Part shown: positions 6,470 to 47,168 of the stretch, one piece after another
Numbering within the stretch: the stretch's first letter is position 1
Layout of the letters: every line of letters starts with the position of its first letter
Origin: an uncultured Anaerolineaceae bacterium
Lineage (GTDB): Bacteria; Chloroflexota; Anaerolineae; Anaerolineales; E44-bin32
DNA length: 64,000 nucleotides
Direction of reading: 5' to 3'
NCBI GenBank assembly: GCA_964575425.1
Contig: CAZNRD010000005.1
Span: 23,851-87,850, forward strand
Position numbers and translations under genes: made by a program
The notes under the pieces: model-generated
Database searches by the model: none
Told to the model about the DNA's origin: nothing
Seen by the model: the letters and a program-made list of their open reading frames with translations, nothing else

Positions 6470-8334
<1,865 letters not shown>

Positions 8335-8341
8335 TTCCTGG

Positions 8342-13178: not shown

Positions 13179-13188
13179 GTGATCAGCC

Positions 13189-16026: not shown

Positions 16027-16047
16027 GCATCGGGGAGCGAGGACAGG

Positions 16048-16299
16048 TTGAGCCAACAGAACGATCGCTTCCGGCAGGAAGTCAAGGACCTGATCAGTGA
16101 GGTCTTCAATCTGCCGCGAGAGACAGTGAGCGATCAGCTTGCCTTTGGGGAGATCTCGGAGTGGGATTCCCTGGGCCACATGGACCTGCTCATGGCTCTT
16201 GAGTCCCGCTACGACATCCCGCTGGATGAGGAGCTGATCACCAGGCTTGTATCCGTGGAAGCCATCTGCACGTATCTGCGGGAGCGGGATCATGCATGA
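16048..16299 (+). CDS. Acyl/aminoacyl carrier protein (phosphopantetheine-binding)
   Basis: 83 aa from a TTG start, with SD GGGGAG/GAGGA 4-11 nt upstream. FGEISEWDSLGHMDLLMALESRYDI contains the DSL-type attachment serine context of carrier proteins. Confidence 0.75.
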   Translation: MSQQNDRFRQEVKDLISEVFNLPRETVSDQLAFGEISEWDSLGHMDLLMALESRYDIPLDEELITRLVSVEAICTYLRERDHA

Positions 16300-17491
16300 G
16301 TACACCATTCACCTGGGGGAGGCAATGCGCATCCCAGACTTCCTGGTTGGCGATGTGCAGTCGCGGCTGGCCTACGTGGATGAGGCCATCGCAACCGTGG
16401 CAGTGGCGGCGGATGGCATGAGCATTCGCTTGAGCGCGCAACAAGAACTGGTCCCAGGCCATCTTGCAGAGATCGAGTCGAAGGTCGGACGCGTTATCCG
16501 GGCGATGGTGCCTGGGGCGGTGAGGCCGCGTCAGAAGGTGCTGGAGGATCAGCTCGACCGGCCGGTGCCCAACGCGCAGGATCCCCTTCCGAACCTGGTA
16601 GAGAGAGGGGAGGTGGTACAGGAGGGATCGGGCATTGTCGTTCTAGGCCCCACGATGAGTGCCCTGATCGACTTTTTTGAGAGGCACTTTGTGGAGCTCG
16701 CCCATTCTTTTGGGGCAGTTGGCTACCGGTTCCCGGCACTCATTTCGCCGGAACTCCTGGAGCGGGTCGACTACTTCCGATCCTTCCCGCACTCGCTCAG
16801 CTTCGTGTGCCACATGCGGGAAGACCTGGACGCAATCGAGAAGTTCTCGCAAGAGGCTCGTTGTGATCGTGGTCATCTGCAGATGGACCGGGCGGCGCTC
16901 TCGGCAGTGAGCGCGCTGCTCTCCCCAGCAGTCTGTTTCCATTGCTACGGCGCCCTTGCCGGGAGGCGCCTGCGAGGGGGTCTGTGTGCGACAGCAGTTG
17001 GCAGCTGCTTTCGCTATGAGTCCAGCAACATGGCCGGGGTGGAAAGGTTGTGGAACTTCAGCATGAGGGAGATCATCTTCGTAGGTCCTAAGGATTTCGT
17101 TCTTGAGAGCCGTGAGGCAGCGCGCAAGAAAGTGGCCGACCTGTTGATGGCCTGGGGGTTTGCATACCGGGTCGAAGGCGCGAGCGATCCGTTCTTCGTT
17201 GGCGATTTCAAGAAGCAGGTTGCCTTTCAGAGTGCCTTTCAGCTCAAGTATGAGATCCGGGCTTCCATACCGCACCGGGCCGGGACGCTGGCCGTCGGCT
17301 CCTTCAACTTCCACCAGGACTTCTTTGGGCGTCACCTAGACATCAGCCTGGACGATGGTTCGCCGGCCTTCACAGGCTGTGTGGCGTTCGGCCTTGAGCG
17401 CATGGCGTATGCCTTCGTGGCGCAGTACGGTCTTGCCTCATCCAACTGGCCCGACGCCGTGCGCCATGGGCTGGCAAGCCCGTGGGCGTGA
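16292..17491 (+). CDS. Amino acid--[acyl-carrier-protein] ligase (class-II aaRS catalytic-core homolog, methanogen-type SerRS-like)
   Basis: ORF trimmed to ATG 16292, with an 8-nt overlap on the ACP stop. Motifs: RFPALISPELLERVDYFRSFPHSLSFVCHM, AVCFHCYGAL, GSCFRYES (motif 2-like), ASDPFF, GSFNFHQDFFG, GCVAFGLERMAYAF (motif 3-like). No coiled-coil tRNA-binding arm or anticodon domain is visible. Confidence 0.7.
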   Translation: MHEYTIHLGEAMRIPDFLVGDVQSRLAYVDEAIATVAVAADGMSIRLSAQQELVPGHLAEIESKVGRVIRAMVPGAVRPRQKVLEDQLDRPVPNAQDPLPNLVERGEVVQEGSGIVVLGPTMSALIDFFERHFVELAHSFGAVGYRFPALISPELLERVDYFRSFPHSLSFVCHMREDLDAIEKFSQEARCDRGHLQMDRAALSAVSALLSPAVCFHCYGALAGRRLRGGLCATAVGSCFRYESSNMAGVERLWNFSMREIIFVGPKDFVLESREAARKKVADLLMAWGFAYRVEGASDPFFVGDFKKQVAFQSAFQLKYEIRASIPHRAGTLAVGSFNFHQDFFGRHLDISLDDGSPAFTGCVAFGLERMAYAFVAQYGLASSNWPDAVRHGLASPWA

Positions 17492-17514
17492 GGCCGCTGT
17501 GAGCGGATGGTTCA

Positions 17515-18309
17515 ATGAAAGAAGTGACCCTGGCCCAGGTAATCGATAGTCTAGAAGCCGTCGGCGTCGGCCGAGGAGACGGGGTGCTTGTGCATTCGGC
17601 CATCCAGTACTTTGGCCGGCCTGTCAGCGGGGTTCCGATGTACTGGAAGGCCTTCGAGGTGGTCCTTGGCCCGGAGGGGACACTGGCCGTTCCGGCGTTC
17701 AATTTCGGATTTGCCCGGGGCGAGCCCTTTGACGCGCGGCACACACCCTCCGACCAGATGGGTCTGCTGGCTGAGTACATCCGGTGCCTGCCCAATGCCA
17801 GGCGCAGCCCGCACCCCCTGCAATCTGTGGCCGTCGTCGGTCGCTGGGCCGCGGATATTGCGGCGCGTGATACACCGTCTGCCTTTGATCCGGGTTCAGG
17901 GTTTGAGAGGATGCTCGAGCTCGATTTCCTCATGGTCCTCCTGGGGGCCAGCATCCAGGTCGCCTCGATTGTCCACTACAGCGAACAGAAGGCGCGGGTG
18001 CCGTATCGGTATTGGAAGACTTTTCACGGCACGGTGGTGCGGGGCGGCGCTGCAGTAGTGGCAGAATACCGGATGTTCGCTCGAGATCTGGCACTGGACC
18101 CGCAAAACGACTTCGGGCCCGTACAGACTTGGCTGGAAGGACGAGGACTGTGGCGGCAGGCCCGACTCAACTACGGGCATGTGGCTGCCTGCCGGCTGCG
18201 CGATGTTGTTGCCGCCGCGGATGACCTGTTGGCCCACAATCCATGGGCATTGGTCAAGGATGGCGAGAGGATGAGGGAGCTGGCGGCGGGGATGAGTCGT
18301 GACGTATAA
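17515..18309 (+). CDS. AAC(3)/Antibiotic_NAT-fold N-acyltransferase homolog
   Basis: 264 aa. GVGRGDGVLVHSAIQYFGRPVSGVPMYWKAFEVVLGPEGTLAVPAFNFGF...PSDQMGLLAEYIRCLPNARRSPHPLQSVAVVG is the aminoglycoside 3-N-acetyltransferase family pattern. Confidence 0.7.
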   Translation: MKEVTLAQVIDSLEAVGVGRGDGVLVHSAIQYFGRPVSGVPMYWKAFEVVLGPEGTLAVPAFNFGFARGEPFDARHTPSDQMGLLAEYIRCLPNARRSPHPLQSVAVVGRWAADIAARDTPSAFDPGSGFERMLELDFLMVLLGASIQVASIVHYSEQKARVPYRYWKTFHGTVVRGGAAVVAEYRMFARDLALDPQNDFGPVQTWLEGRGLWRQARLNYGHVAACRLRDVVAAADDLLAHNPWALVKDGERMRELAAGMSRDV

Positions 18310-19450
18310 GGACGGAATGGACGAGCGCGTCAGGGTCCTCTATGTCTCGCAAGGCTACACGCCGCACGACTACCGTTTCCTTTCCGGGCTGGCCAGCTCG
18401 GGGCACGAAGTGTTTCACCTGCGATTCAACGCAGCCGCGTGTAGCGAGACCCGTCCGCTTCCGGCCGGCGTGGGCCCTGTGGATTGGAAGGCCAATCGGC
18501 CGCGCCCTCGTGTCTGGAATGTGCCGTTCCTGGCGCGCCGCCTGGCCAGTGTTCTGGCGCGCATCCGGCCGGATCTGGTCCACGCGGGGCCGATCCAGCA
18601 GGGAGCTGCCCTTGCCGCGCTGAGTGGCTTTCGCCCCATCGTGGCCATGTCGTGGGGTTCGGACCTACTGATCGAGGGCGCTTCGGGGCTTGGCCGACTG
18701 ATCGCCCGCTACGCCTTGCAGCGGTCTGCTGCCCTCCTTTGTGACTGCCAGGCGGTGCGCATGGCGGCCGAGCGCCTTGGTTTTGCGAGTGACCGAATCG
18801 TTGTCTTTCCATGGGGGGTGGACCTGGTGCATTTCCGTCCGGGTGATGACGCAGGGCTTCGTGCCCGCCTGGGGTGGAGCGACGGCATCGTCGTGCTGTC
18901 AACTCGTTCGTGGGAGAGCGCCTACGGGATTCCCGAGCTGGTGGAAGGGTTCATCCAGGCTGGCGCCGACATCCCGCAACTGCGCCTGCTGATGTTGGGG
19001 GGAGGCTCTCTCGGAGATACGATGCAGAGACGCCTGAAAGCGGCGGGGATGATGAACCGAGTGCATCTGGCCGGGTGGGTCTCCTACCAGGAACTGCCTC
19101 ACTACTACTGTGCAGCGGACATCTACGTCAGCGCCTCTCATGCCGATGGCAGTTCAGTGTCGCTTCTGGAGGCGATGGCCTGCGGGCTCCCGGCCATCGC
19201 TTCCAACATCCCGGGGAATCAGGAGTGGGTTTCTCCTGGGGTGACCGGTTGGCTCTTTCCGGTGGGCAGTGCCGCACACTTGGCGGAGGCCATTCGGCAG
19301 GCGGTCGAAGGCCAAACGCAATGGTCGGCACTAGGTGCCCGGGCGCGTCAGCAAGCCGTCGAGCGGGCGGACTGGGCGCGCAATTTCCCCCGCATCCACG
19401 AGGCCTATCGGATGGCGTTGATGGCCAGGGGGACCAGTGCCCGCAGCTAA
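18299..19450 (+). CDS. Glycosyltransferase family 4 (GT-B)
   Basis: 383 aa from GTG 18299 (ATG 18317 alternative, with AAGGA upstream). RVLYVSQGYTPHDYRF at the N-terminus; C-terminal E-x7-E region YCAADIYVSASHADGSSVSLLEAMACGLPAIASNIPGNQEWV. Confidence 0.8.
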   Translation: MTYKDGMDERVRVLYVSQGYTPHDYRFLSGLASSGHEVFHLRFNAAACSETRPLPAGVGPVDWKANRPRPRVWNVPFLARRLASVLARIRPDLVHAGPIQQGAALAALSGFRPIVAMSWGSDLLIEGASGLGRLIARYALQRSAALLCDCQAVRMAAERLGFASDRIVVFPWGVDLVHFRPGDDAGLRARLGWSDGIVVLSTRSWESAYGIPELVEGFIQAGADIPQLRLLMLGGGSLGDTMQRRLKAAGMMNRVHLAGWVSYQELPHYYCAADIYVSASHADGSSVSLLEAMACGLPAIASNIPGNQEWVSPGVTGWLFPVGSAAHLAEAIRQAVEGQTQWSALGARARQQAVERADWARNFPRIHEAYRMALMARGTSARS

Positions 19451-20195
19451 GCGGCCGATCCTGGCCATCATTCAGGCGCGCATGGGCTCGACACGGCTCC
19501 CCGGAAAGATATTGGCCGACATCGGGGGCCAGCCGATGCTGGTGCGCGTTGTCGAACGCGCCCGCCGGGCAAGCAGCCTCGACGGCGTGATTGTCGCGAC
19601 TACGACTCAGACAGAGGATGATGTGGTCGAACACCTGTGCGCTCAACGAGGCTACCCATGCCGCCGCGGCCACCCGACCGACGTGCTCGACCGGTACTAT
19701 CGTGTCGCACGAGAGGCAGGGGCAGGTGTGGTCGTTCGACTGACGGCGGACTGCCCCCTGATTGACCCGGCTCTCATTGATCAAGTGGTCGAAGCCTTCC
19801 TGTCGTCTGAGCCGCCCGCCGACTTTGCTGCCAACCGGCTCCCAAGCGAGCGGACTTTCCCGATCGGCCTCGACGTTGAGGTGTGCACGTTTGCTGCTCT
19901 GGCGCGGGCCTGGGCGGAAGCCGAAGAAGCCTACCAACGTGAGCATGTCATGCCCTATCTCTATGAGCGGCCAGGTCGCTTTCGCGTCCTTCTGTTCCGC
20001 TGCGAGCGTGATCTCAGCCATCTCCGATGGACAGTCGACACGGCCGCAGATCTGGAATTGGTGCGCAGGATCTATGCCCATTTCGGGGAGCGGGACGATT
20101 TCGCCTGGCAGGAAGTGCTTAGCTTGGTTGAGCGGAATCCATCCTTAAGTGAAATCAACGCTGACGTCCGCCAGCGAACGCTCGGAGGGATGTGA
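19437..20195 (+). CDS. SpsF/PseF-like cytidylyltransferase (CTP_transf_3 family)
   Basis: 252 aa with a GTG start. Motifs: ILAIIQARMGSTRLPGKILADIGGQPMLVRVVERA, VIVATTTQTEDDVV, VVRLTADCPLIDPALIDQVV. Confidence 0.75.
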   Translation: MPAAKRPILAIIQARMGSTRLPGKILADIGGQPMLVRVVERARRASSLDGVIVATTTQTEDDVVEHLCAQRGYPCRRGHPTDVLDRYYRVAREAGAGVVVRLTADCPLIDPALIDQVVEAFLSSEPPADFAANRLPSERTFPIGLDVEVCTFAALARAWAEAEEAYQREHVMPYLYERPGRFRVLLFRCERDLSHLRWTVDTAADLELVRRIYAHFGERDDFAWQEVLSLVERNPSLSEINADVRQRTLGGM

Positions 20196-21658
20196 TGATT
20201 GGTCGATCCCGCTGGCAGCTGCGCCCTCTTCGCGCCATTCCTCGTGGATACGTCTCTCGTTCACTGGATTGGCACGAACTGGCCGCAGAAGCTGGCGAGG
20301 AGTTCGAACGTCTTCTTCCCATCCGCCGCAGCCTGACGGGAGAGGGTGTACGCCAGACGCTTGAATACCTGAAATCGGTGTCCCCCTTCGACATCAAGGA
20401 GATTCCGTCGGGCACGCGCTGCTACGACTGGGAGGTGCCGCAAGAATGGAGCATCCGCGACGCGTATGTGGCCACGCTGGACGGTCGAAGGGTGATCGAT
20501 CTTCAGCGCAGCAACCTGCACGTCGTCGGACACAGTCTGCCGATTGACGCGGAGATGTCCTTTGACGAGCTCGACTCTCACTTGCACACCCTGCCTGCGG
20601 AGCCGAAGGCGATCCCGTATCGGACAAGCTACTACCAGGCCAACTGGGGTTTCTGCCTGACACACGAAGCGTATCAGCAGTTGGACCGCCGTGCGCGCTA
20701 CAGGGTGGTTATTGATTCCACCCTGCGGCCCGGCTCGCTCACCTATGGCGAAGCACGCCTCGCGGGCTGCTCGGGGCGGGAGTTCCTGGTTTCCACGTAT
20801 TGCTGTCATCCGTCCATGGTCAATGACAACCTGTCTGGAATGGTGCTTTGGAGCCTGTTGCTTCGAGAGCTGAGAAGGCAGCCAACCTGGCATACCTATC
20901 GGTTTGTGATCGTGCCTGAGACGATAGGCGCGATTGCCTATCTGCACCGCAACGAGCGCGCAATGCGCCGGCTCGAAGCAGCTCTGGTCGTGGCGACCGT
21001 CGCCGGGCCAGGGCCACTGGGCTACAAGCAGTCCTTCTTGGGGACCCACCTCATTGATCGGGCCATTCGCCGAAGCTTCGCGGAACTCGGGATCGAGCCG
21101 CTGACGTATCCATTTGACGTGAACGGGAGCGATGAGCGCCAGTTTTCCTCGCCATATTTCCGCATCCCCTGCGCCACCATCTGCAAGGACAAGTACCACG
21201 AGTACCGGTACTATCACACATCCTTGGATGACCTGGCTTTTGCGCGACCGGAATACCTCGTGGAAACGCTGAGGCTCTATCTCCTCACGATCGAAAAACT
21301 CGAAGCGGACCGGGCCTATCGCTCGGTGGTCTTGCGCGGGGAGCCGATGCTGGGGAAGCGGGGATTGTACCCGCAGACCGGGGGTTCGATACGGCAGAAG
21401 GCGGCAGCTCTAGACGGGGGTCGGGGCGAGCAGGGCGATCTGCCCAGCGGGAACGACATTGCGCGTGGCGATGAGCTGGACGCGATGCGGTGGTTGATGT
21501 TCTGGGGAGATGGCCGGACGACCTTGTTCGAGATTGGAGAGCGCATCGGCCTGCCGGTGGGGCAGCTGGTGCGGACGGCTGAGCGCCTGGTGCAGCACGG
21601 ACTCCTTGAGCCAGTCCCTGATCGACGCCGATCGGGCCCGGTCTGGCGGGCGAAGTGA
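20192..21658 (+). CDS. Aminopeptidase-like (M28-fold, DUF4910/COG4310-type) polysaccharide-biosynthesis protein with C-terminal winged helix
   Basis: 488 aa with a GTGA overlap. LPIRRSLTGEGVRQTLEYLKSVSPFDIKEIPSGTRCYDWEVPQEWSIRDAYV matches my recollection of this family. The C-terminal LFEIGERIGLPVGQLVRTAERLVQHGLL is wHTH-like. Confidence 0.55.
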   Translation: MMIGRSRWQLRPLRAIPRGYVSRSLDWHELAAEAGEEFERLLPIRRSLTGEGVRQTLEYLKSVSPFDIKEIPSGTRCYDWEVPQEWSIRDAYVATLDGRRVIDLQRSNLHVVGHSLPIDAEMSFDELDSHLHTLPAEPKAIPYRTSYYQANWGFCLTHEAYQQLDRRARYRVVIDSTLRPGSLTYGEARLAGCSGREFLVSTYCCHPSMVNDNLSGMVLWSLLLRELRRQPTWHTYRFVIVPETIGAIAYLHRNERAMRRLEAALVVATVAGPGPLGYKQSFLGTHLIDRAIRRSFAELGIEPLTYPFDVNGSDERQFSSPYFRIPCATICKDKYHEYRYYHTSLDDLAFARPEYLVETLRLYLLTIEKLEADRAYRSVVLRGEPMLGKRGLYPQTGGSIRQKAAALDGGRGEQGDLPSGNDIARGDELDAMRWLMFWGDGRTTLFEIGERIGLPVGQLVRTAERLVQHGLLEPVPDRRRSGPVWRAK

Positions 21659-24549: not shown

Positions 24550-25567
24550 AGAGGGGACCCCTCGGGCTGTTGCAGCCGCCGACGTCGTGGCTGCTGTCAT
24601 TGTTTACGTCCCTCACCTGCGCGGCTACTTCACCAACCGCCTGGCGGTGGTTGGTTTGAGCTTGCAGAGCCTGATTCGGCACAAGCCGTCCCAATCCAGG
24701 CTTGTCGTCTTCGACAATGGCAGCTGCGAGGAAGTGCGCTCCATGCTCGCGGCCCACGTACAGCGGGGGGAAATCGACCTTCTCGTACGCAGCTGGACAA
24801 ACATTGGCACCCCTGCGGCGCTGCGCATCATCTTGAGCATGGGGCTGCGGCCGTTGGTCGCCTACGGCGATGACGACGTGTTCTACTATCCAGGCTGGCT
24901 CGAGGCAGAGCTGGCGGTCTGGTCGGCCTTCCCTCGCGTCGGGATGGTCTCAGGCGTTGCCACCCTGGATGGAGCTGACCATGCCGTCGGGGCGACCCTC
25001 GGCGCGGCAGAGAGTGACCCTTCCATCCGGCTGGAGAACGAGGCCCACATCGCGGTTGAATGGGAGGCGGACTGGGCACGCAGCACAGGGAGGGATCCTA
25101 AGGCGCGCGCCGACCACGCGCGCCGCCGGCCCGTGGCGCTCCTTGAGCGCCAGGGTGTGCAGGCCTTTGCTGGGGCCACCCATTTTCAGTACCTCGGCCG
25201 AGCCAGCGAGCTGCTCGCGGCTCTCCCCCTAGACAGGCCGACCTCACTGATGGGCAACATGCGCCTCCTGGATGAGGGCATCGACCGCATGGGGCGAATG
25301 CGTCTCTCCACGACCAAACGGGTTGTGCGTCACATGGGCAATGCCGTTGCGGAGGAGCTCCGACAAGAGGCGGCTGCGATGGGCCTTGACGTGGCACCGA
25401 CTCGCAGGCCGCCGCGAGTGACACCCCTCGAAACACTGCTGGAAAGGAACCGTTGGGTTCATGGCAAGATGTGGGTTGCCTACCGTCGCATTGGGCGCGT
25501 GCTGGACGGCGAGGGCATTGTCCCCGATTCCGTCATGGAGGTCGATCGAGAGGTGCCAGCCCAATGA
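24542..25567 (+). CDS. Glycosyltransferase family 2 (GT-A), paralog 2
   Basis: ORF trimmed to ATG 24542 (8-nt overlap). Motifs: VAAVIVYVPHLRGYFTNRLAVVGLSLQSL, LVVFDNGSCEEVRSML, AYGDDDVFYYPGWL. Confidence 0.7.
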   Translation: MAEEGTPRAVAAADVVAAVIVYVPHLRGYFTNRLAVVGLSLQSLIRHKPSQSRLVVFDNGSCEEVRSMLAAHVQRGEIDLLVRSWTNIGTPAALRIILSMGLRPLVAYGDDDVFYYPGWLEAELAVWSAFPRVGMVSGVATLDGADHAVGATLGAAESDPSIRLENEAHIAVEWEADWARSTGRDPKARADHARRRPVALLERQGVQAFAGATHFQYLGRASELLAALPLDRPTSLMGNMRLLDEGIDRMGRMRLSTTKRVVRHMGNAVAEELRQEAAAMGLDVAPTRRPPRVTPLETLLERNRWVHGKMWVAYRRIGRVLDGEGIVPDSVMEVDREVPAQ

Positions 25568-26577
25568 CGCGCTTCCTGATCTGCGGCTTGGGATCCATCG
25601 GCCGCCGCCATCTCCGCAATCTCCGCGCCCTGGGTCAGGAGGATATCGTTCTGCTTCGCAGCGGGAGAAGCACGCTTCCAGACGAGGAGCTGGCGGGCCT
25701 GCCCGTTGAGCGCGAGATCGACGTCGCGCTCAATCGATGGAGACCTCAGGCTGTCATCGTGGCCACGCCGACCGCTTTGCATCTCGAGGCAGCCATCCCC
25801 GCCGCACGCGCCGGGTGCCACATTCTCCTGGAGAAGCCGATCTCGCACAGCCTGAACGGCATTGATGACCTTCGAGCAGCGGTGGCGCAGCGGGGGAGCC
25901 GGGCGCTGGTTGGCTTCCAGTTCCGCTTCCACCCGGGGCTGCAGCGTGTCAAAACGCTGCTCGATGGTGGGGCCATTGGCCGGCCAACGGCGGTGCGGGC
26001 GCACTGGGGCGAGTATCTGCCAGACTGGCATCCGTGGGAGGACTACAGGTATGGCTACAGCGCGCGCTCCAACCTGGGAGGTGGAGTCGTGCTGACCCTG
26101 TGCCACCCATTTGACTATCTCCGCTGGCTCTTCGGCCAACCCTGCTCGCTCTGGGCGCGCGCGGCGCGCTTGAGTGACCTGGAGCTCGATGTGGAGGACA
26201 CGGCGGATGTGCTGTTGTCCTTCATTTCAGGCCTCACGGCCAGCCTGCATCTCGACTTCATCCAGCGCCCCCCGCAGCATCGTTTGACGATCGTCGGCAC
26301 GGAAGGGACGATGGAGTGGGATGGACTTGAAGGATCGGTGCGGCTGTATTCGGCTCGGGCGGACGGGTGGCAGACGATACCGCCCCCGGACGGGTTCGAG
26401 CGGAACGCTCTGTTCCTCGACGAGATGCGTCACTTCCTTCACCTGACTGCCGCCGATGTTCGGCCAGCCTGTTCGCTTGAGGAGGGGATCCTCGCGCTGC
26501 GCCTATCACTGGCCGCCCTGGAGTCATCGAAGACGGGGCGCGCCGTCGCCCTGGAAGATGGAACACAGCCGGAGTGA
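25564..26577 (+). CDS. Gfo/Idh/MocA-family NAD(P)-dependent oxidoreductase
   Basis: ORF trimmed to ATG 25564 (ATGA overlap). Motifs: MTRFLICGLGSIGRRHLRNL, AVIVATPTALHLEAAIPAARAGCHILLEKP. Confidence 0.8.
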   Translation: MTRFLICGLGSIGRRHLRNLRALGQEDIVLLRSGRSTLPDEELAGLPVEREIDVALNRWRPQAVIVATPTALHLEAAIPAARAGCHILLEKPISHSLNGIDDLRAAVAQRGSRALVGFQFRFHPGLQRVKTLLDGGAIGRPTAVRAHWGEYLPDWHPWEDYRYGYSARSNLGGGVVLTLCHPFDYLRWLFGQPCSLWARAARLSDLELDVEDTADVLLSFISGLTASLHLDFIQRPPQHRLTIVGTEGTMEWDGLEGSVRLYSARADGWQTIPPPDGFERNALFLDEMRHFLHLTAADVRPACSLEEGILALRLSLAALESSKTGRAVALEDGTQPE

Positions 26578-26581
26578 GAGC

Positions 26582-27709
26582 ATGGAGATCCGAGGCGGCC
26601 GGCTAGGCGATGCGCTCGACAACCAGCCACGTGGTAGGAGGGGCCTGCTGGCCTCGCCTGGCCTCTGGTTGGGGCTTCTCCTGAGCGCAGTCTGCTTATG
26701 GCTGGCCTTCCGCCAGGTCCCGTTCCGTGCTCTGGGCGAGACACTGTCTGGAGCAACGTATGGGTGGCTGGTGCCGGCAATCGGACTGCACCTCCTGGCT
26801 GTCTGGGCGCGAGCGGCGCGTTGGCAGGCGCTGCTGGACGCGCGAGGAATCTTGGCAGATGCATTCTGGGCACAAGGGGTTGGCTTCCTGTTCACCAATG
26901 CCTTCCCGCTGCGCATGGGGGAGCCTGCCCGGGTGGTGACGCTTGCAGGGCGGTGTCGCCTGCCTATCCTGCGTGTGGCGACCTCAGCGGTTGTCGAACG
27001 GGCGCTGGACGTAGGCACAATCCTGGGCATTCTGGCGCTGGTCCTTCCGTGGATGCACGTTCCACCGCTGGTCCTGCGGGCCAGCCAAACCTTTGCAGCA
27101 CTGCTGCTGGTGGCCGTGGGTTTGATGGCAATCCTGCTGCACATGCGCGAGCGGGCGGAGGCCGTGCTGCGGCGTCTCCTTGGACGGCTGCGGCTGCCCG
27201 CCGATGGCCTGATGCAGCGATGGCGGGAACTGCTCGAGGGGCTGCAAGCGCTTCTCCACCGTGGGGTAGCGCTGCGCGGGCTGGGCTGGTCGCTTGCGGT
27301 GTGGGCGCTGTACGTCGGTTTCTACTGGTGCGTCTTGCGCGGCTTCCGCACCGACCCGACCCTGGTCGAGGCGGGCTTCATGGTGGTGGCGCTCGCACTT
27401 GCGATCTCCGTGCCGTCCAGCCCCGGTTTCGTTGGGGTGTATCAGCTTGCCGGGCAGCAGGCGCTGAGCCTGCCATTCGGCGACCGTTACGACCCGGGCA
27501 TTGCGCTGGCGATCACGCTGGTGTCACACGTGGCGTACTTTCTGCTCACCTCGCTGCTGGGCGCGATCGGTTTGGCGCGAATGGGGGTGACGTTTGGTGA
27601 CCTGGTGGGGAGGATCATGAACCGCAGGCCAGGTGTCACCGGCCGGACCCTGGACGCGCCGGCCGGCCCCGATAGCGGCGGCGGTTCAGCGCCAAAGGGA
27701 TTGGCGTGA
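26582..27709 (+). CDS. Flippase-like domain membrane protein (LPG_synthase_TM/UPF0104, MprF-flippase related)
   Basis: ORF trimmed to ATG 26582. LLLSAVCLWLAFRQVPFRALGETLSGATYGWLVPAIGLHLLAVWARAARWQALL is the typical opening of this family; about 8 hydrophobic helices. Confidence 0.6.
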   Translation: MEIRGGRLGDALDNQPRGRRGLLASPGLWLGLLLSAVCLWLAFRQVPFRALGETLSGATYGWLVPAIGLHLLAVWARAARWQALLDARGILADAFWAQGVGFLFTNAFPLRMGEPARVVTLAGRCRLPILRVATSAVVERALDVGTILGILALVLPWMHVPPLVLRASQTFAALLLVAVGLMAILLHMRERAEAVLRRLLGRLRLPADGLMQRWRELLEGLQALLHRGVALRGLGWSLAVWALYVGFYWCVLRGFRTDPTLVEAGFMVVALALAISVPSSPGFVGVYQLAGQQALSLPFGDRYDPGIALAITLVSHVAYFLLTSLLGAIGLARMGVTFGDLVGRIMNRRPGVTGRTLDAPAGPDSGGGSAPKGLA

Positions 27710-27738
27710 GAAGCGAGCCCGCCCAGACCGACCTGGAG

Positions 27739-27754
27739 CGGTGTGCTGCCACAC
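27739..27754 (+). terminator. GC-rich hairpin without U-tract (weak terminator candidate)
   Basis: GGTGTG-ctgc-CACACC, 30 nt after the stop at 27709, inside a 106-bp gap. No T-run follows, so function is uncertain. Confidence 0.2.
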
Positions 27755-27815
27755 CCTCGGTCAGAACTGCCCATCGGCGGGACGTTGGCGGCCAGGGCGC
27801 TGGAGGAGGCCGGAT

Positions 27816-28640
27816 ATGGATGTGGACCAGAGGAACGTCTTGGACGCGTTTCGCCTGACGGGCAGGGTAGCGCTGGTGACGGGGGGCGCGGGACTTCTGG
27901 GGGCCGAGTTCTGCCGCACCCTGGCCGGGGCGGGCGCGTCGGTCGGTGTCGCCGATCTGGCTGTCCACAAGGCGGCCGCAGTCGCCAAGGGGCTGCCCGG
28001 GGCGGCTCGCCCTGTCGAGATGGATGTCACGGGGCCCGAATCGGTCCAGAGGGCGGTGGACGACGTCGTCGCCGCGTTCGGGCGGCTTGACATCCTGGTG
28101 AACAGCGCTGCGCTCGACCCGAAGTTCGACCCAAGTCAGACGGGCCAGCACGCGAGCGCCTTCGAAGACTACCCGCTCGAGAGCTGGAACCAGGCGCTGG
28201 CTGTCAACCTGACCGGCGTCTTCCTGTGCTCCCAGATGGCGGCCAGGCAGATGCTCAGGCAGGGTAGTGGCGTGATCGTCAACATCTGCTCCACCTACGG
28301 CCTGGTGGGCCCAGATCAGCGTATCTACGAACAGCCAGGACAACCGGCGCAGTTCAAGCCGGCGTACTACTCGGTCACCAAAGCCGGCATTCTGGGAATG
28401 ACCCGTTACCTGGCGACCTACTTTGCCGGGAGGAACATCCGCGTGAACGCGCTGACGCCAGGCGGGGTGTACAACGACCACGACGAGGCGTTCGTCCGGA
28501 ACTACTCCGCGCGGACAGTCCTTGGGCGGATGGCTCGGAAAGACGAGATGAATGGTGCCTTGCTGTTCCTGGCGTCGGACGCCTCCTCGTACATGACGGG
28601 AGCAAATCTTGTGGTCGACGGAGGCTGGACGGCGTGGTAA
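27816..28640 (+). CDS. Short-chain dehydrogenase/reductase (classical SDR)
   Basis: ORF trimmed to ATG 27816, with SD GGAGGAGG upstream. Motifs: GRVALVTGGAGLLGAEF, VNSAAL, YYSVTKAGILGMTRYLA, IRVNALTPGGV. Confidence 0.8.
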   Translation: MDVDQRNVLDAFRLTGRVALVTGGAGLLGAEFCRTLAGAGASVGVADLAVHKAAAVAKGLPGAARPVEMDVTGPESVQRAVDDVVAAFGRLDILVNSAALDPKFDPSQTGQHASAFEDYPLESWNQALAVNLTGVFLCSQMAARQMLRQGSGVIVNICSTYGLVGPDQRIYEQPGQPAQFKPAYYSVTKAGILGMTRYLATYFAGRNIRVNALTPGGVYNDHDEAFVRNYSARTVLGRMARKDEMNGALLFLASDASSYMTGANLVVDGGWTAW

Positions 28641-29869
28641 GCCCGGCGAAGGTCCTCGCCATCGTCCCGGCGCGCGGCGGATCGAAGTCGATCCCACGCA
28701 AGAACATCCGCCTGTTCGCCGGTCACCCTCTCCTAGCGTACAGCATCGCCGCCGGGCTGCAGGCGAAATCGGTCGATCGAGTTCTCGTTTCGACCGACGA
28801 CGCCGAGATCGCCGAGGTCGCCCGACGCTACGGCGCCGAGGTGCCCTTCCTGCGGCCGGCTGCGTTGGCGCAAGATGATACGCCGGACCTCCCGGTCTTC
28901 GAGCATGCGCTGAAATGGCTGGATTCCCATGAGGGCGACCGGCCGGAAGTGATCGTGCAGCTGCGCCCGACCTCGCCGCTGCGCCCGCCGGATTGCGTCG
29001 ACCGGGCGGTTCAGATCCTGGCCGACAATCCGCAGGCCGACTCGGTGCGTGGGGTAGTTCCGGCCAGTCAGAACCCCTACAAGATGTGGCGAATCGGGGA
29101 CGACGGGCAGATGCAGCCGCTGCTGCGCGAGGGCTTCGACGAGCCGTACAACATGCCGCGCCAGTCGCTGCCCACGACGTACTGGCAGACAGGCCACATC
29201 GACGTCATTCGGACAGCAGCCATTCTAGAGAAGGGCTCGATGAGCGGGAACATCATCTTGCCTCTGCTCCTTGACCCGGCCTACGCTGTCGACATTGATA
29301 CCCTGCGCGATTGGGAGAAAGCGGAGGCCGTGGTCCGCGATGGCAAGCTGCCCGTCGTCCGCCCCGGCCGCGCGCCTCGGCCGCTTCCGGATCGGATTGA
29401 GCTAGTCGTCCTCGACTTCGACGGTGTCCTGACGGACAACCGTGTCTGGGTCGATGGTGAGGGACGCGAGAGCATCGCCGCGCATCGCGGCGACGGCTGG
29501 GGGGTGGCTCGGCTCCGCGAGCATGGCGTCGAGGTGATGGTGCTCTCGGCTGAGAAGGACCCGGTGGTGGCCGCGCGCTGCCGCAAGCTGGGCGTGCCGG
29601 CGATCCAGGGGGTGGTGGAGAAGGCCGAGGCGCTCCGAGGGCTCCTTGCCGAGCGCGGCACGGATCCGGCACGCGTGGTCTATCTTGGCAACGATGTCAA
29701 CGATGTGCCTTGCTTTGGCGTTGTTGGCTGCGCCGTCGTCGTCGCCGACGCCCACCCGGCGGCCGCGGCCGAAGCCGATAGGGTGCTGCGAACCTCCGGC
29801 GGACATGGTGCCGTGCGGGAGTTGTGTGACCTGATCCTCCAACACCTGAGGGAGAGACCGAATGGCTAG
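28634..29869 (+). CDS. Bifunctional NeuA-like acylneuraminate cytidylyltransferase / KdsC-type HAD-IIIA sugar-acid phosphatase
   Basis: 411 aa with a GTG start. The N-terminal half has VLAIVPARGGSKSIPRKNIRLFAGHPLLAYSI and VIVQLRPTSPLR. The C-terminal ~160 aa has LVVLDFDGVLTDNRVWVDGEG, SAEKDPVVAARCRKLG and YLGNDVNDVPCF. Confidence 0.8.
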   Translation: MVSPAKVLAIVPARGGSKSIPRKNIRLFAGHPLLAYSIAAGLQAKSVDRVLVSTDDAEIAEVARRYGAEVPFLRPAALAQDDTPDLPVFEHALKWLDSHEGDRPEVIVQLRPTSPLRPPDCVDRAVQILADNPQADSVRGVVPASQNPYKMWRIGDDGQMQPLLREGFDEPYNMPRQSLPTTYWQTGHIDVIRTAAILEKGSMSGNIILPLLLDPAYAVDIDTLRDWEKAEAVVRDGKLPVVRPGRAPRPLPDRIELVVLDFDGVLTDNRVWVDGEGRESIAAHRGDGWGVARLREHGVEVMVLSAEKDPVVAARCRKLGVPAIQGVVEKAEALRGLLAERGTDPARVVYLGNDVNDVPCFGVVGCAVVVADAHPAAAAEADRVLRTSGGHGAVRELCDLILQHLRERPNG

Positions 29870-30737
29870 GGAGATTCGCTTCGGTGGCCGCCTGGTCGGG
29901 GATGGGCATCCAACCTGCATCGTGGCTGAGATCGGCATCAATCACAATGGAGACCTGGGCATCGCCCGGCAATTGATCGACGCTGCGGTGCACGCTGGTG
30001 TGGACGCGGTCAAGTTCCAGAAGCGCACGCCGGAGCTGTGCATCCCGGTTGAGCAGCGTGACCTGATGCGCGACACGCCCTGGGGCTACATCTCGTATCT
30101 CGAGTATCGGAGGCGAGTCGAATTCGGCTACGACGAGTTTGTCGAGATTGACCGCCACTGCCGTTCCCGTGGTGTCCCGTGGTTTGCTTCCGTCTGGGAC
30201 GAACCGTCGGTGGATTTCCTGGAGCCGTTCGAGCCGATCGGCTACAAGATTCCCTCGGCCGCACTCACAGACCAGAACCTGCTGCGGCATGCGCGCGCCA
30301 CCGATCGCCCGATCGTGCTCTCCACGGGCATGTCGACGATGGAGCAGATCCGGCAGGCAGTGCAAGCCATAGGCGAGGACAATCTCATACTGCTGCACAC
30401 GACAAGCACCTACCCCTGCGATCCCGATGAGCTGAACCTCACGATGATCCAGACCCTCCGCCGTGAGTTTCCGTGCCCGATAGGGTACTCTGGGCACGAG
30501 GTCGGGTTGGTGCCGTCGGTGGTGGCTGTCGCCTTGGGGGCATGCATGGTTGAGCGGCACATCACCCTCGACCGGGCGATGTGGGGCAGCGACCAGGCGG
30601 CCTCCGTCGAGCCGGGAGGATTTGAGCGGCTCGTGAAGTACATCCGCGTCACCGAGAAGGCGTTGGGAGACGGCATCAAGCGGGTGTATCGGAGCGAACT
30701 GCCGTCACTGCGGAAGCTGCGCCGTGTTGCCAACTGA
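29862..30737 (+). CDS. NeuB-family sugar-acid synthase homolog lacking the SAF domain
   Basis: 291 aa with an 8-nt overlap. Motifs: VGDGHPTCIVAEIGINHNGDLGIARQLIDAAVHAGVDAVKFQKR, IGYKIPSAALTD, PIVLSTGMSTMEQI. It ends right after the barrel; no SAF-like tail. Confidence 0.75.
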   Translation: MAREIRFGGRLVGDGHPTCIVAEIGINHNGDLGIARQLIDAAVHAGVDAVKFQKRTPELCIPVEQRDLMRDTPWGYISYLEYRRRVEFGYDEFVEIDRHCRSRGVPWFASVWDEPSVDFLEPFEPIGYKIPSAALTDQNLLRHARATDRPIVLSTGMSTMEQIRQAVQAIGEDNLILLHTTSTYPCDPDELNLTMIQTLRREFPCPIGYSGHEVGLVPSVVAVALGACMVERHITLDRAMWGSDQAASVEPGGFERLVKYIRVTEKALGDGIKRVYRSELPSLRKLRRVAN

Positions 30738-30768: not shown

Positions 30769-31821
30769 ATGATGGCCAACAGCCGACGGTCCATCGTCGT
30801 GTTGATCGGGGCGAGTGTGCTCGTCTTGAGCCTGATCGGGGTGTACTTCCAGGGAGGCAAGCTGGGAGTTGAGTACCTTCGGACGGAGCAGCTCCGCCGG
30901 CATTTGGAGATCCTGGAGGGTCATGCTGGCAGCCCCACGCAGTACCGGCTTCTGTCGGAGTGGCTGGTCGAGGCATGGGTGCAGGCTCTGGCGCGGTTGG
31001 GAGTGTCGGAAGCCATCGTCGTTGGCTTTCTCTCCTTCCGCGTCGTGCAGAACATGATCATCCTGTCTTTGGCTGCGACCTTCTATCGCCGCCTGGGACT
31101 CCGAAACCCGGCCGTGCTGGCCTCGCTGGCTGTCGTCACCTGGAGCATGACGCACAGCCTGTATGACAGCGACCTTTCCTTCAATCTCTATGGAGACCTC
31201 ATCTTCTACCTGGCTGCTGGCGTGTTGACATACAGCCGGCGAGACCCCTGGATTGTGCTGCTCATGGGATTGGCTGCGGCAAACCGAGAGACAAGCGGGC
31301 TGATCCTCGCGCTGTTCCTCCTGGCGCGCTACCGCAGCGGCCTGAAATGGGATCGGCGAACCATCGTGATCGCGCTTGCTGCACTGGTCGCGTTCCTGGC
31401 AGGCTATCTGGCGGTTCGCTGGGCTCTGGGCCCACGGCCGGTCACGCTTCCCCATGGGCGGACGCCAGGACTGGATTTGCTCGATTACAACCTGTTCCGC
31501 CGCCAGACCTGGGTCCACCTGGCTGCCTGCTGGAGCGTGTTCCCGGTGATTGCATTGCTGGGGGTGCGGCGCCTGCCCCAGACGCTGCGGCGATGGCTGA
31601 TCGCGGTTCCGCCCGTATGGCTGGCCGTCCATTTCACCCTGGCCGTTGCAGCCGAAGTGCGGCTGATGCTCATGCCGCAGCTGATGATCTTCGTGCCGGC
31701 TGCGTTCCTGACGATCCAGAACGCCTCCGGGCCGGTGCATCAAGGGACTGACGGTGACGGGAATGGTGCGGCTGCTCAGACGGAGGGTCGCCAGAAGCAG
31801 GGCGACATCGGTGGCAGGTAG
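30769..31821 (+). CDS. Polytopic membrane protein, function unknown
   Basis: ORF trimmed to ATG 30769; ~350 aa with about 9-10 hydrophobic helices. No WecA/WbaP motifs. AAANRETSGLILALFLL is faintly reminiscent of Wzy/O-antigen-ligase loops, but this is not diagnostic. Confidence 0.4.
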   Translation: MMANSRRSIVVLIGASVLVLSLIGVYFQGGKLGVEYLRTEQLRRHLEILEGHAGSPTQYRLLSEWLVEAWVQALARLGVSEAIVVGFLSFRVVQNMIILSLAATFYRRLGLRNPAVLASLAVVTWSMTHSLYDSDLSFNLYGDLIFYLAAGVLTYSRRDPWIVLLMGLAAANRETSGLILALFLLARYRSGLKWDRRTIVIALAALVAFLAGYLAVRWALGPRPVTLPHGRTPGLDLLDYNLFRRQTWVHLAACWSVFPVIALLGVRRLPQTLRRWLIAVPPVWLAVHFTLAVAAEVRLMLMPQLMIFVPAAFLTIQNASGPVHQGTDGDGNGAAAQTEGRQKQGDIGGR

Positions 31822-31825
31822 GGCG

Positions 31826-33442
31826 ATGCGAGGTTTGCGTCTGCCCAAGCCGCGCAGCGCGTGGGTGCGCCTGCTGTGGCTTCTGACAGACCGGGCCAAC
31901 CGCCGGCAGGTGCGGCGGGTCGAGCGATTCCTGCGCGGGGTGCGCACGGCTGACGATGACAGGCGGGTGCTGGTCTTCAACGCCTCGACTCGGATCGGCA
32001 GGCCGAGCCTGAATGCAGGCTTCAGCCTGTTGGCATCCTGGGCGCTGCGAGCGTCGGGCGTGCCAGTCCGCTATGTGGTCTGTGTCCGCGGCCTTGCCCC
32101 ATGCGTCCTGGGGACGAATCGGGAGGATTATCGTGCCGCACCGCCGTGCCGGCCCTGCCTGCGGCTCAGCCGCGACCTGTTCCCCCTTGGTCTGACGATC
32201 GGGTTGGAGTTCGACTCGGTTGCGGCGCAAACCGCGGAGGTTGCGATCCGCGACCTTGGGATGGCCGACCTCGAAGCCTGGGCGTTTGACGGGTTGCCGC
32301 TCGGACAGCTGTGCCTGCCCGGGCTGCGCTGGGCGCTGCGGCGCCATCATCTTCCCGACGACGAGCCCACGCGAGGGCTCTATCGGCGTTACCTGTCCTC
32401 GGCGGCGAGCCTGGCGAGGCAATTCGGCCAAATCCTGGATCGAGAGAAGCCTCAGGCGCTGGTAGTCTTCAATGGAATCATGTACCCCGAGGCGGTCGCC
32501 CGGGAGCTCGCCCTGCGGCGCTCCATTCGGGTGGTGACGCATGAGGTCGGCCTGCGGCCGTTCTCGGCCTTCTTCTCCCATGGGCACGCGACGTTCCGAG
32601 AGGTCGAGCTTCCGGAGGGCTTTGAGTTGAATGACGAGGAAGACCGGCGATTGGACGGGTATCTGTCGCAGCGGTTTCGTGGCAAGTTCACAATGGCTGG
32701 GATCCGGTTCTGGCCGGAGATGGATCCGCTGCCCGCCGATCTGCTCGAGCGGATCGGCCGACACCGCCAGACGGCTGCGGTCTTCACCAACGTCATCTTC
32801 GACACCAGCCAGGTCCATGCCAATACGCTGTATCCAGACATGTTTGCTTGGCTCGACGACGTGCGGGAGGTGGCAGCCAGGCATCGCGAAACGTTGTTCG
32901 TCTTCCGCGCGCATCCGGACGAGGACCGACCGGGGAAGGAGAGTCGCGAAACCGTGGCGGAGTGGGCCCGCGAACGAAGCCTGCAGGACCTGCCCAATGT
33001 GGCTTTCTTCGGGCCGTCGGACTACGTCAGCTCATACGAGCTGATTTGCCGGGCAAAGCTGGTGTTGGTCTACAACTCGTCAATCGGGCTGGAGGCATCG
33101 ATCCTGGGCGCGCCGGTCCTGTGCGCCGGGCGGGCGCGCTACACCCAGCTGCCGACGGTGTTCTTCCCTGAGAGCCGGGAGGCCCATCTCAGCCTGATGC
33201 GTGAGTTCCTGGCCGCCCCTTCCATCACCGTTCCCCCGGAGTTTGCCAAGAACGCCCGGAGGTTCCTGCACTTTGAGCTGCATCACGCCTCGCTTGACCT
33301 TTCCCGTTTCCTGGGGCCGTATCCTATGCAGCCAGGCATGGTGACGTTTGAGCGAGCCGATCCCGATGCAATTCGGTCATCCTCCGAACTTGCGCGGATC
33401 AGGGCGGGCATTCTCACAGGCTGTGGATTTGGAGTGTCGTGA
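31826..33442 (+). CDS. KpsC/KpsS-like (Capsule_synth-type, GT-B) transferase, paralog 2
   Basis: ORF trimmed to ATG 31826. Collinear with 9622..11292 in VFNGIMYPEAVARELALRRSIRVVTHEVG, VFRAHPDEDRPGK and LVLVYNSSIGLEASILGAPVLCAGRARY. Confidence 0.5.
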   Translation: MRGLRLPKPRSAWVRLLWLLTDRANRRQVRRVERFLRGVRTADDDRRVLVFNASTRIGRPSLNAGFSLLASWALRASGVPVRYVVCVRGLAPCVLGTNREDYRAAPPCRPCLRLSRDLFPLGLTIGLEFDSVAAQTAEVAIRDLGMADLEAWAFDGLPLGQLCLPGLRWALRRHHLPDDEPTRGLYRRYLSSAASLARQFGQILDREKPQALVVFNGIMYPEAVARELALRRSIRVVTHEVGLRPFSAFFSHGHATFREVELPEGFELNDEEDRRLDGYLSQRFRGKFTMAGIRFWPEMDPLPADLLERIGRHRQTAAVFTNVIFDTSQVHANTLYPDMFAWLDDVREVAARHRETLFVFRAHPDEDRPGKESRETVAEWARERSLQDLPNVAFFGPSDYVSSYELICRAKLVLVYNSSIGLEASILGAPVLCAGRARYTQLPTVFFPESREAHLSLMREFLAAPSITVPPEFAKNARRFLHFELHHASLDLSRFLGPYPMQPGMVTFERADPDAIRSSSELARIRAGILTGCGFGVS

Positions 33443-46098: not shown

Positions 46099-46144
46099 TC
46101 CACGAGGGCCGGGGGCCGTGGGCGGAAGGTCGAGTGCAGCAACC

Positions 46145-47122: not shown

Positions 47123-47168
47123 TGAGCATGAGACGTTCTCGGTCGGAGGCAGGGACGTGGAGGCTGTG

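Follow-up and report, generated by a model that had tools for sequence, protein, structure and literature searches.

How many acidic sugars can a single bacterial glycan locus build, and by which routes? The question is raised by a stretch of 64,000 nucleotides (hereafter the window) from an uncultured Anaerolineaceae bacterium (assembly GCA_964575425.1, contig CAZNRD010000005.1, positions 23,851 to 87,850). The window has about 64% G+C, carries nearly all of its genes on the plus strand and, as a whole, is a glycan locus. In it, a NeuA-type cytidylyltransferase is fused to a KdsC-type phosphatase of the HAD class and encoded next to a NeuB-family synthase without a SAF domain, downstream of two oxidoreductase genes. 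An earlier note on this DNA had proposed that these genes follow a phosphorylated-intermediate route beside a PseB-type route, so that the locus would build two different acidic sugars activated with cytidine monophosphate (CMP).

This proposal is well supported by sequence. Two separate gene sets are present in the window, and each of them encodes a PF05159-like transferase besides a synthase and a cytidylyltransferase. The genes between 25564 and 33442 probably form one translationally coupled module for making and transferring a CMP-activated 3-deoxy-nonulosonic acid of the Kdn (3-deoxy-D-glycero-D-galacto-non-2-ulosonic acid) type. As this module stands beside one of the PseB type, the locus would encode at least two different CMP-activated acidic sugars. 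The phosphorylated route is further backed by phosphatase residues equivalent to Glu56, Arg64 and Lys67 of the Bacteroides thetaiotaomicron enzyme BT1713 and by orthology to a Streptomyces NeuA/NeuB operon.

The NeuA–HAD fusion

The fusion gene is an uninterrupted open reading frame (ORF), in which the motifs quoted in the earlier note, VPARGGSKSIPRKNI, VLDFDGVLTDN and GNDVNDVP, are all found. Residues 9–145 match PF02348 (CTP_transf_3, E = 5e-21), and residues 8–232 score 171.3 bits against the PseF model TIGR03584, under its equivalog cut-off of 205.7. The C-terminal part (residues 254–403) matches PRK09484 with 123.5 bits, TIGR01670 with 91 bits and NF058599, the model for BT1713-type Kdn-9-phosphate (Kdn-9-P) phosphatases, with 74.4 bits, all under the equivalog cut-offs. 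The domain limits lie at about 1–235 for a NeuA/PseF-like CMP-nonulosonate synthetase and at about 250–405 for a KdsC-family (C0 HAD) domain. The fusion described earlier is thereby borne out, and the domain calls made here (PF02348, HAD-IIIA/TIGR01670-like, PF03102 and PF08666) agree with the original assignments, with E-values far outside what chance would give.

The fusion is real and old. A homolog search in a library of 5.8 billion proteins returned 7994 matches; the best 120 have 403–421 residues, most of them with both Pfam domains, and those with names come from metagenome-assembled genomes of Anaerolineae or Chloroflexota. Among the best 150 representatives from a library with clusters at 50% identity, 74 are 370–440 residues long, nearly all of these with the DFDGV and GNDxND motifs, and one cluster of homologs contains Brachyspira proteins. 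Fusions of the reverse order, HAD–NeuA, are also found among these representatives, which points to independent fusions and thus to functional coupling. An artefact of sequencing or assembly joining two genes, a concern raised in the earlier note, is ruled out by an identical 411-residue protein with the same gene boundaries in an independent Logan assembly of the same genome, by thousands of homologs of the same length and by full-length matches in 80 genomes. Nothing was found in favour of an artefact here; one Streptomyces draft copy does have a frameshift (locus L084, below).

In the NeuA half, VPARGGSKSIPRKNI corresponds to the P-loop-like PARGGSK(G/S)xxxKN motif. The fold of this half matches CMP-pseudaminic acid, CMP-N-acetylneuraminic acid and CMP-Kdn synthetases (PDB 9ftb/9ftc, 6ifd, 1eyr and 9t4z; TMt ~0.8). 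Because sequence and fold searches fail to favour the CMP-Kdn synthetase 9t4z over the CMP-pseudaminic acid synthetase, the NeuA domain gives no clue to the sugar, the specificity for which is not readable from its sequence. In an AlphaFold2 (AF2) model of the whole fusion (mean predicted local distance difference test, pLDDT, of 82), the halves match cytidylyltransferase structures and 3mmz/KdsC structures separately; a structure search with this model found no solved chain spanning both domains.

Catalytic and substrate residues of the HAD domain

Conservation within the fusion is highest in the HAD domain. When 31 fused homologs, 34–58% identical to the protein of the window, are aligned, the invariant columns fall almost entirely within this domain (D261, D263, G264, D287, R315, K318, K330, G352, D354, D357, G389, G390 and R395), and E307 and N353 are conserved in at least 90% of the sequences.

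We aligned the domain with the PDB sequences of a Streptomyces avermitilis HAD protein (3mmz, its best PDB match at 154 bits), BT1713 (3e81), KdsC (7t35 and 3mn1) and the C-terminal domain of mouse CMP-sialic acid synthetase (CMAS; 3ewi). The earlier note had considered that the catalytic DxD might be missing. It is kept: motif I reads D261-F-D263-G-V, with the nucleophile Asp and the Asp+2 aligned with D10 and D12 of BT1713. S305 of motif II and K330 of motif III are also present. Motif I of the mouse CMAS domain is N-I-D-G-C, the nucleophile being replaced by Asn.

The residues E307, R315 and K318 align with E56, R64 and K67 of BT1713; the corresponding residues are R/R/T in KdsC 7t35 and R/R/S in 3mn1. 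The PDB holds BT1713 with the substitutions E56A (4hgq) and E56A/K67A (4hgr), and E56 and K67 were reportedly studied (Lu 2009, Daughtry 2013) as the elements distinguishing Kdn-9-P from Kdo-8-phosphate phosphatases. A Kdo-type (8-carbon) route was rejected: the synthase belongs to the NeuB family, not to KdsA, and the phosphatase has Glu and Lys rather than Arg and Thr at the specificity positions.

The C-terminal part of the AF2 model is a capless, Rossmann-like fold of ~160 residues. It superposes on 3mmz with a root-mean-square deviation (rmsd) of 1.8 Å (TMt 0.86) and on KdsC structures with an rmsd of ~2 Å.

Motif IV (residues 352–357, window 29688–29705) starts with G-N in the bacterial fused family, in 3mmz and in mouse CMAS (G-N-E), and with G-D-D in stand-alone KdsC and BT1713. 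This shared G-N start, which places Asn at a Mg-ligand position, may mark a common descent of the fused forms.

A NeuB synthase without a SAF domain

Immediately downstream, the 291-residue NeuB homolog ends shortly after its TIM barrel, as had been noticed before. PF03102 covers residues 38–273 (E = 7e-77), the Pfam search gave no match to the SAF domain PF08666, and the protein stops 18 residues past the barrel. The other NeuB of the window (14953–16026, 357 residues) combines PF03102 with PF08666 (E = 5e-12), confirming the SAF-like tail ascribed to it; the two synthases are 33% identical. In typical NeuB proteins the SAF, or antifreeze-like, domain supplies Arg314 to the active site of the partner subunit. 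The R314A and R314K variants of this domain (Neisseria meningitidis numbering) are PDB entries 4ipi and 4ipj.

Invariant residues of the short NeuB include the metal-binding H212 and H233, the Lys and Ser residues that bind phosphoenolpyruvate (PEP), K51, K54, K129, S132 and S210, and the KFQKRT motif. Its fold matches 6ncs, 8h2c and 1xuu, the best being 6ncs, a 290-residue NeuB from Leptospira that also lacks SAF. From residue 237 onwards, a region covering the conserved basic KLRR tail, which might stand in for the SAF domain at the active site, the AF2 model has a pLDDT below 60. The equivalog models for NeuB (NeuB_NnaB, the best NCBIfam model) and PseI score 254 and 207 bits, respectively, against cut-offs of 399.65 and 340. 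Judged by sequence, the short NeuB is a member of a distinct SAF-less subfamily common to Streptomyces and 6ncs. It is the fused phosphatase and the gene context, and these only, that suggest the use of a 6-phosphorylated hexose by this enzyme.

Conservation across Anaerolineae

A genome scan with one genome per species gave at least 592 matching stretches. Synteny was counted in the best 80, all from Anaerolineae and including the cultured Bellilinea caldifistulae GOMI-1. No more than 3 kb downstream of the fusion, the short NeuB gene is found in 69 of 72 loci; in 58 of 71 it is the direct neighbour of the fusion. Upstream of the fusion, an SDR (short-chain dehydrogenase/reductase) homolog is found in 66 of 77 loci and a Gfo/Idh/MocA homolog in 51 of 55; a PF05159-like glycosyltransferase follows downstream in 48 of 53. 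In 27 of 55 loci, genes of the PseB-type module are present upstream. The whole arrangement of the module is conserved across the Anaerolineae lineage.

More distant fused homologs (38–41% identity) also adjoin SAF-less NeuB genes, and in one such cassette the pair is accompanied by a GT52 sialyltransferase-like gene. Another distant cassette (L086, 7008–15448) encodes, in order, an SDR, the fusion, a methyltransferase–SIS protein, a 288-residue NeuB (59% identical), a 572-residue protein, a GT4 glycosyltransferase and a GHMP kinase. The presence of a kinase and a SIS domain would agree with a sugar phosphate as substrate.

Four loci (L065, L066, L070 and L072) have rearranged sets, in which a stand-alone NeuA-like ORF, a full-length fusion and a more divergent short NeuB are followed by divergent Gfo/Idh/MocA and SDR genes downstream and then by further NeuB-type genes. 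In L065 and L072, one of these is closely related to the short NeuB of the window. The arrangement suggests duplication and divergence of the module.

Orthologs in Streptomyces

The homologs of 3mmz are Streptomyces proteins, many of them annotated as partial cytidylyltransferases. In two Streptomyces loci (L084 and L085) a C-terminal NeuA half-domain is directly followed by the HAD region. In L085 the two form one ORF, interrupted by an assembly gap alone and continuous at the junction. In L084 (Streptomyces microflavus, 9000–10678) the ORF is split by a frameshift just past the RRQDRP motif, probably a sequencing error; splits of this type explain the partial annotation of many Streptomyces entries. 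The next gene encodes a SAF-less NeuB of 310–312 residues, which is 61–62% identical to that of the window and shares its C-terminal KLRR motif. Nearby genes encode a PF07388 polysialyltransferase-like protein and a DUF6716 protein, and neither L084 nor L085 contains the Gfo/Idh/MocA or the SDR gene.

By sequence comparison, the SCO4880/SCO4881 pair of Streptomyces coelicolor is orthologous to the fusion and the short NeuB. The operon SCO4879 (NeuE-like), SCO4880 (NeuA) and SCO4881 (NeuB) is activated by PhoP and has been assigned to the synthesis of a phosphate-free wall polymer (PMC3479208). The major wall polymer of Streptomyces is a Kdn-containing teichulosonic acid (PMC11481543, PMC7831098).

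Two oxidoreductases resembling an Ela-type epimerase

The Pfam and NCBIfam families of the three genes upstream of the fusion are those expected from the earlier note: a Gfo/Idh/MocA oxidoreductase, a flippase-like membrane protein and an SDR. The Gfo/Idh/MocA protein has 3ezy as its best PDB match, and its top NCBIfam matches are inositol and sugar dehydrogenases. The top NCBIfam model of the SDR is NF006619/PRK09186 (181.7 bits, cut-off 255), the model for flagellin modification protein A (PtmA), and 6uh2 is its second-best PDB match. For the NeuA domain, 6ifd ranks third among the PDB matches.

A 2026 study of Acinetobacter baumannii KL49 found that ElaA (Gfo/Idh/MocA), ElaB (CTP-transferase) and ElaC (SDR) are all required for normal capsule production. 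[quoted passage not shown] No entry named ElaA or ElaC is found among the PDB matches of the window oxidoreductases. The likeness, in protein families and shared PDB neighbours, is indirect but consistent, and the module resembles an Ela-type trio of tailoring enzymes combined with a synthase and a phosphatase of the Kdn type. As the oxidoreductases belong to the same families as ElaA and ElaC, the pair credited with C8 epimerisation of CMP-legionaminic acid, the finished sugar may be an epimer of Kdn.

The slot between the two oxidoreductase genes varies. It holds the flippase-like gene here and a sulfotransferase gene in locus L002 (8167–9156); in L003 a sulfotransferase gene (7112–8137) lies just upstream of the Gfo/Idh/MocA gene. 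The Gfo/Idh/MocA and SDR genes stand side by side in 22 of 54 loci.

Proposed pathway and alternatives

In the proposed pathway, the SAF-less NeuB would join PEP to a hexose 6-phosphate, most simply mannose 6-phosphate to give Kdn-9-P. The C-terminal HAD domain of the fusion would strip the 9-phosphate, leaving Kdn, and the N-terminal domain would convert the free acid and cytidine triphosphate (CTP) to the CMP-sugar. In an optional step, the least certain of all, the Gfo/Idh/MocA enzyme may oxidise one hydroxyl of the CMP-sugar and the SDR may reduce the product from the opposite face, yielding an epimer. Finally, the PF05159-like transferase would attach the sugar to a glycan for export by the Wzm/Wzt ABC transporter (7429–9625). 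We assign a probability of about 0.62 to this reading, that is, a phosphorylated Kdn-type route with CMP activation, optional epimerisation and PF05159-like transfer, encoded by one coupled module. Its foundations, namely the domain identities, the conserved catalytic residues, the phosphatase specificity residues, the synteny and the orthology, are computational observations. Also in favour of it, Pfam and NCBIfam searches found no UDP-GlcNAc 2-epimerase or aminotransferase in the Kdn-type module. A bolder version, which we hold only tentatively, is that the product is an undescribed nonulosonic acid, an epimer of Kdn such as 8-epi-Kdn, made by Ela-like oxidation and reduction of CMP-Kdn and passed by the PF05159-like transferase to an ABC-exported glycan, the fusion being an active counterpart of vertebrate CMAS.

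Several observations weigh against the Kdn-type pathway. All equivalog models score under their cut-offs for the proteins of the module. For NF058599 the cut-off is 180 bits, so the HAD domain is not filed as a BT1713 equivalog and is predicted only to work like one. Its motif IV (G-N-D-V-N-D) has Asn353 in place of the Mg-binding Asp of KdsC and BT1713 (GDDxxD). The NeuA half is closest to a CMP-pseudaminic acid synthetase (35–36% identity), compared with 27–28% for the solved CMP-Kdn synthetase 9t4z. The oxidoreductases are missing from the Streptomyces loci, and for the window both their step and its substrate are argued by analogy alone. The Streptomyces cluster also has a putative NanE-like epimerase for N-acetylmannosamine 6-phosphate (ManNAc-6-P), SCO4873, which makes an N-acetylated substrate possible. 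The link between the Streptomyces genes and Kdn rests in part on a knockout study (Ostash et al. 2014) that reportedly tied the SCO4879–4881 region to the Kdn polymer. Finally, our literature search found no paper on nonulosonic acids in Anaerolineae.

Three other explanations were weighed, each of them less likely than the Kdn-type reading. In an animal-like route to N-acetylneuraminic acid (Neu5Ac), the short NeuB would condense ManNAc-6-P with PEP to Neu5Ac-9-phosphate (Neu5Ac-9-P); the HAD domain would then remove the phosphate, and CMP-Neu5Ac or a derivative would be made by the NeuA domain. In work by Wang, Lu et al., the BT1713-type phosphatase reportedly also accepts Neu5Ac-9-P, and SCO4873 would fit such a route. 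NeuB_NnaB is the best NCBIfam model of the synthase, but the score of 254 bits is far under the equivalog cut-off. Among bacteria, a phosphorylated Neu5Ac route has been proposed before, for Leptospira (PMC3438082). NanE, NanK and UDP-GlcNAc 2-epimerase, however, are absent from module and window alike. Moreover, the organism that has the ortholog pair together with a characterised polymer makes Kdn, not Neu5Ac (PMC11481543). We regard the Neu5Ac route as unlikely. The oxidoreductases might instead act before the synthase, epimerising the hexose 6-phosphate through a keto intermediate so that a stereoisomer of Kdn-9-P is made directly. Their position upstream of the synthase in the operon, the inositol and sugar dehydrogenases among the top matches of the Gfo/Idh/MocA protein, and the SIS-domain protein and GHMP kinase that accompany the fusion in L086 agree with this order of events. 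Against it, the CMP-sugar is the proposed substrate of ElaABC, the sole characterised trio of Gfo/Idh/MocA, SDR and cytidylyltransferase proteins (PMC13656337), and L084, L085 and L087 are without both oxidoreductases, although L086 keeps an SDR beside the fusion. This absence fits late tailoring, without proving it, and an action before the synthase appears rather unlikely.

It is also improbable that the HAD domain is merely a tetramerisation scaffold, as in vertebrate CMAS, with the short NeuB acting on a non-phosphorylated sugar in an ordinary NeuB/NeuA pair. Vertebrate CMAS does have the same architecture, with a C-terminal domain devoid of phosphatase activity in vitro (PMC8636478), and the Asn of motif IV occupies a Mg-ligand position in both proteins. 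The mouse domain, however, has Asn for the nucleophile, whereas in the fused homologs the nucleophile Asp, the Asp+2, the Lys of motif III and the two Asp of motif IV are invariant and the substrate Glu, Arg and Lys equally conserved. The scaffold reading is also opposed by the HAD domain being more conserved than the rest of the fusion and by the independent fusions in both domain orders, which point to functional coupling.

Layout of the module and other genes of the window

The genes of the module are tightly packed (Table 1). The stop of the SDR gene and the start of the fusion overlap by 7 nt, the fusion and the short NeuB gene by 8 nt (29862–29869), as the earlier note had stated for the latter pair, and the stop and start codons of the oxidoreductase, flippase-like and SDR genes overlap or almost abut. 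The membrane protein ORF between synthase and transferase has no Pfam or NCBIfam match. It is absent from this position in most related loci, the transferase gene directly following NeuB in 49 of 63. The transferase itself matches PF05159 with 28.8 bits (cut-off 20) and, weakly, the BFO_1060 glycosyltransferase domain model NF046086.

Table 1. Genes of the predicted Kdn-type module and their proposed roles
Feature	Position	Strand	Families and proposed role
Gfo/Idh/MocA NAD(P) oxidoreductase, 337 aa	25564..26577	+	PF01408, PF22725, PF02894; ElaA-like, proposed oxidising half of a CMP-sugar epimerase
Flippase-like membrane protein, LPG_synthase_TM family	26582..27709	+	PF03706 (E 4e-43), TIGR00374; variable slot, outside the module core
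SDR, 274 aa	27816..28640	+	PF13561, PF00106; PtmA/ElaC-like, proposed reducing half of the epimerase
Bifunctional NeuA–HAD fusion, 411 aa, GTG start	28634..29869	+	PF02348 and KdsC-type HAD; predicted CMP-nonulosonate synthetase and Kdn-9-P-type phosphatase
SAF-less NeuB-family synthase, 291 aa	29862..30737	+	PF03102 alone; proposed Kdn-9-P (nonulosonate-9-P) synthase
Multi-pass membrane protein, ~350 aa	30769..31821	+	Between short NeuB and transferase; probably not core
PF05159 (KpsC/KpsS-like) glycosyltransferase	31754..33442	+	Proposed transferase for the CMP-activated sugar

The PseB-type module (12183–20195) is separate from the Kdn-type module. The stretch 12183–21658 encodes a PseB equivalog (480 bits), an RmlD-like reductase, the SAF-containing NeuB synthase and a KdsB-like cytidylyltransferase. 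It also encodes a homolog of class-II aminoacyl-tRNA-synthetase-like amino acid–carrier protein ligases, an AAC(3)-like N-acyltransferase and a DUF4910/DUF2172 protein. No aminotransferase is found within 12183–21658, and the sugar of this module may not be ordinary pseudaminic acid.

Ahead of the sugar modules lie the genes for Wzm and for Wzt with its carbohydrate-binding domain (Wzt_C), and the window contains many glycosyltransferase genes. A PF05159-like paralog (9598–11292) adjoins the PseB-type module, and every nonulosonate module thus comes with a KpsC/KpsS-type transferase. In an ABC-transporter-dependent pathway, the acidic sugars may serve as chain-end signals.

A third cytidylyltransferase (41989–42801; 55.8 bits against the PseF model) is encoded near a 2-hydroxyacid dehydrogenase and a second SDR (46076–47918). 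These genes could form a module for a third activated acidic sugar. Many related loci have a weak cytidylyltransferase match and an SDR downstream of the transferase, together with a 2-hydroxyacid dehydrogenase in L003.

Comparison with known systems

Anaerolineae are abundant filamentous bacteria of sediments and wastewater granules, and very little is known of their surface chemistry. A lineage-wide locus that apparently encodes at least two, and possibly three, CMP-activated acidic sugars offers an explanation, open to testing, of the sialic-acid-like signals that have been reported for sludge polymers.

A close counterpart is the Kdn pathway of B. thetaiotaomicron (BT1714 Kdn-9-P synthase, BT1713 phosphatase and CMP-Kdn synthetase), which has the same three steps and protein families. 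The window HAD domain shares with BT1713 the DxD, the Lys, the Asp residues of motif IV and the Glu56/Arg64/Lys67 set. In contrast to that system, the window phosphatase is fused to the cytidylyltransferase, its motif IV reads G-N-D rather than G-D-D, and two further oxidoreductases are present.

The fusion has the domain order of vertebrate CMAS, an N-terminal cytidylyltransferase followed by a C-terminal KdsC-like HAD domain with a motif IV that starts G-N. To our knowledge, no function has been assigned to the C-terminal domain of the vertebrate enzyme. That domain has Asn for the nucleophile Asp and shows no phosphatase activity in vitro, whereas the bacterial domain keeps the nucleophile; the fusion is predicted to be a natural, active counterpart of the vertebrate enzyme.

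In Leptospira interrogans, a NeuB fused to a phosphatase-like domain set the precedent for inferring a phosphorylated nonulosonate route (PMC3438082); there, the domain belongs to another phosphatase family and is fused to the synthase rather than to the cytidylyltransferase. The solved 290-residue, SAF-less NeuB of Leptospira borgpetersenii (6ncs) is 30% identical to the short NeuB of the window. The SCO4879–SCO4881 system of Streptomyces shares with the window the fused NeuA–HAD protein (41% identity over residues 169–402) and the adjacent SAF-less NeuB, in the same order. It differs in having neither a Gfo/Idh/MocA protein nor an SDR and in its PF07388 rather than PF05159-like transferase, and its product belongs to a Gram-positive wall polymer.

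The Ela system, known from A. baumannii KL49 and also from Vibrio vulnificus, resembles the window in encoding a Gfo/Idh/MocA protein, an SDR and a CMP-nonulosonate synthetase together, with 3ezy, 6uh2 and 6ifd as common nearest PDB neighbours. It acts on a di-N-acetylated 9-deoxy sugar of the legionaminic acid pathway, whereas the module described here has a SAF-less NeuB partner and an attached phosphatase. The parts are thus of known kinds, and their combination and lineage-wide conservation appear to be undescribed. Should the oxidoreductases epimerise CMP-Kdn, the nonulosonic acid family would gain a new member; otherwise, the module would be one more Kdn pathway of the Bacteroides/Streptomyces type.

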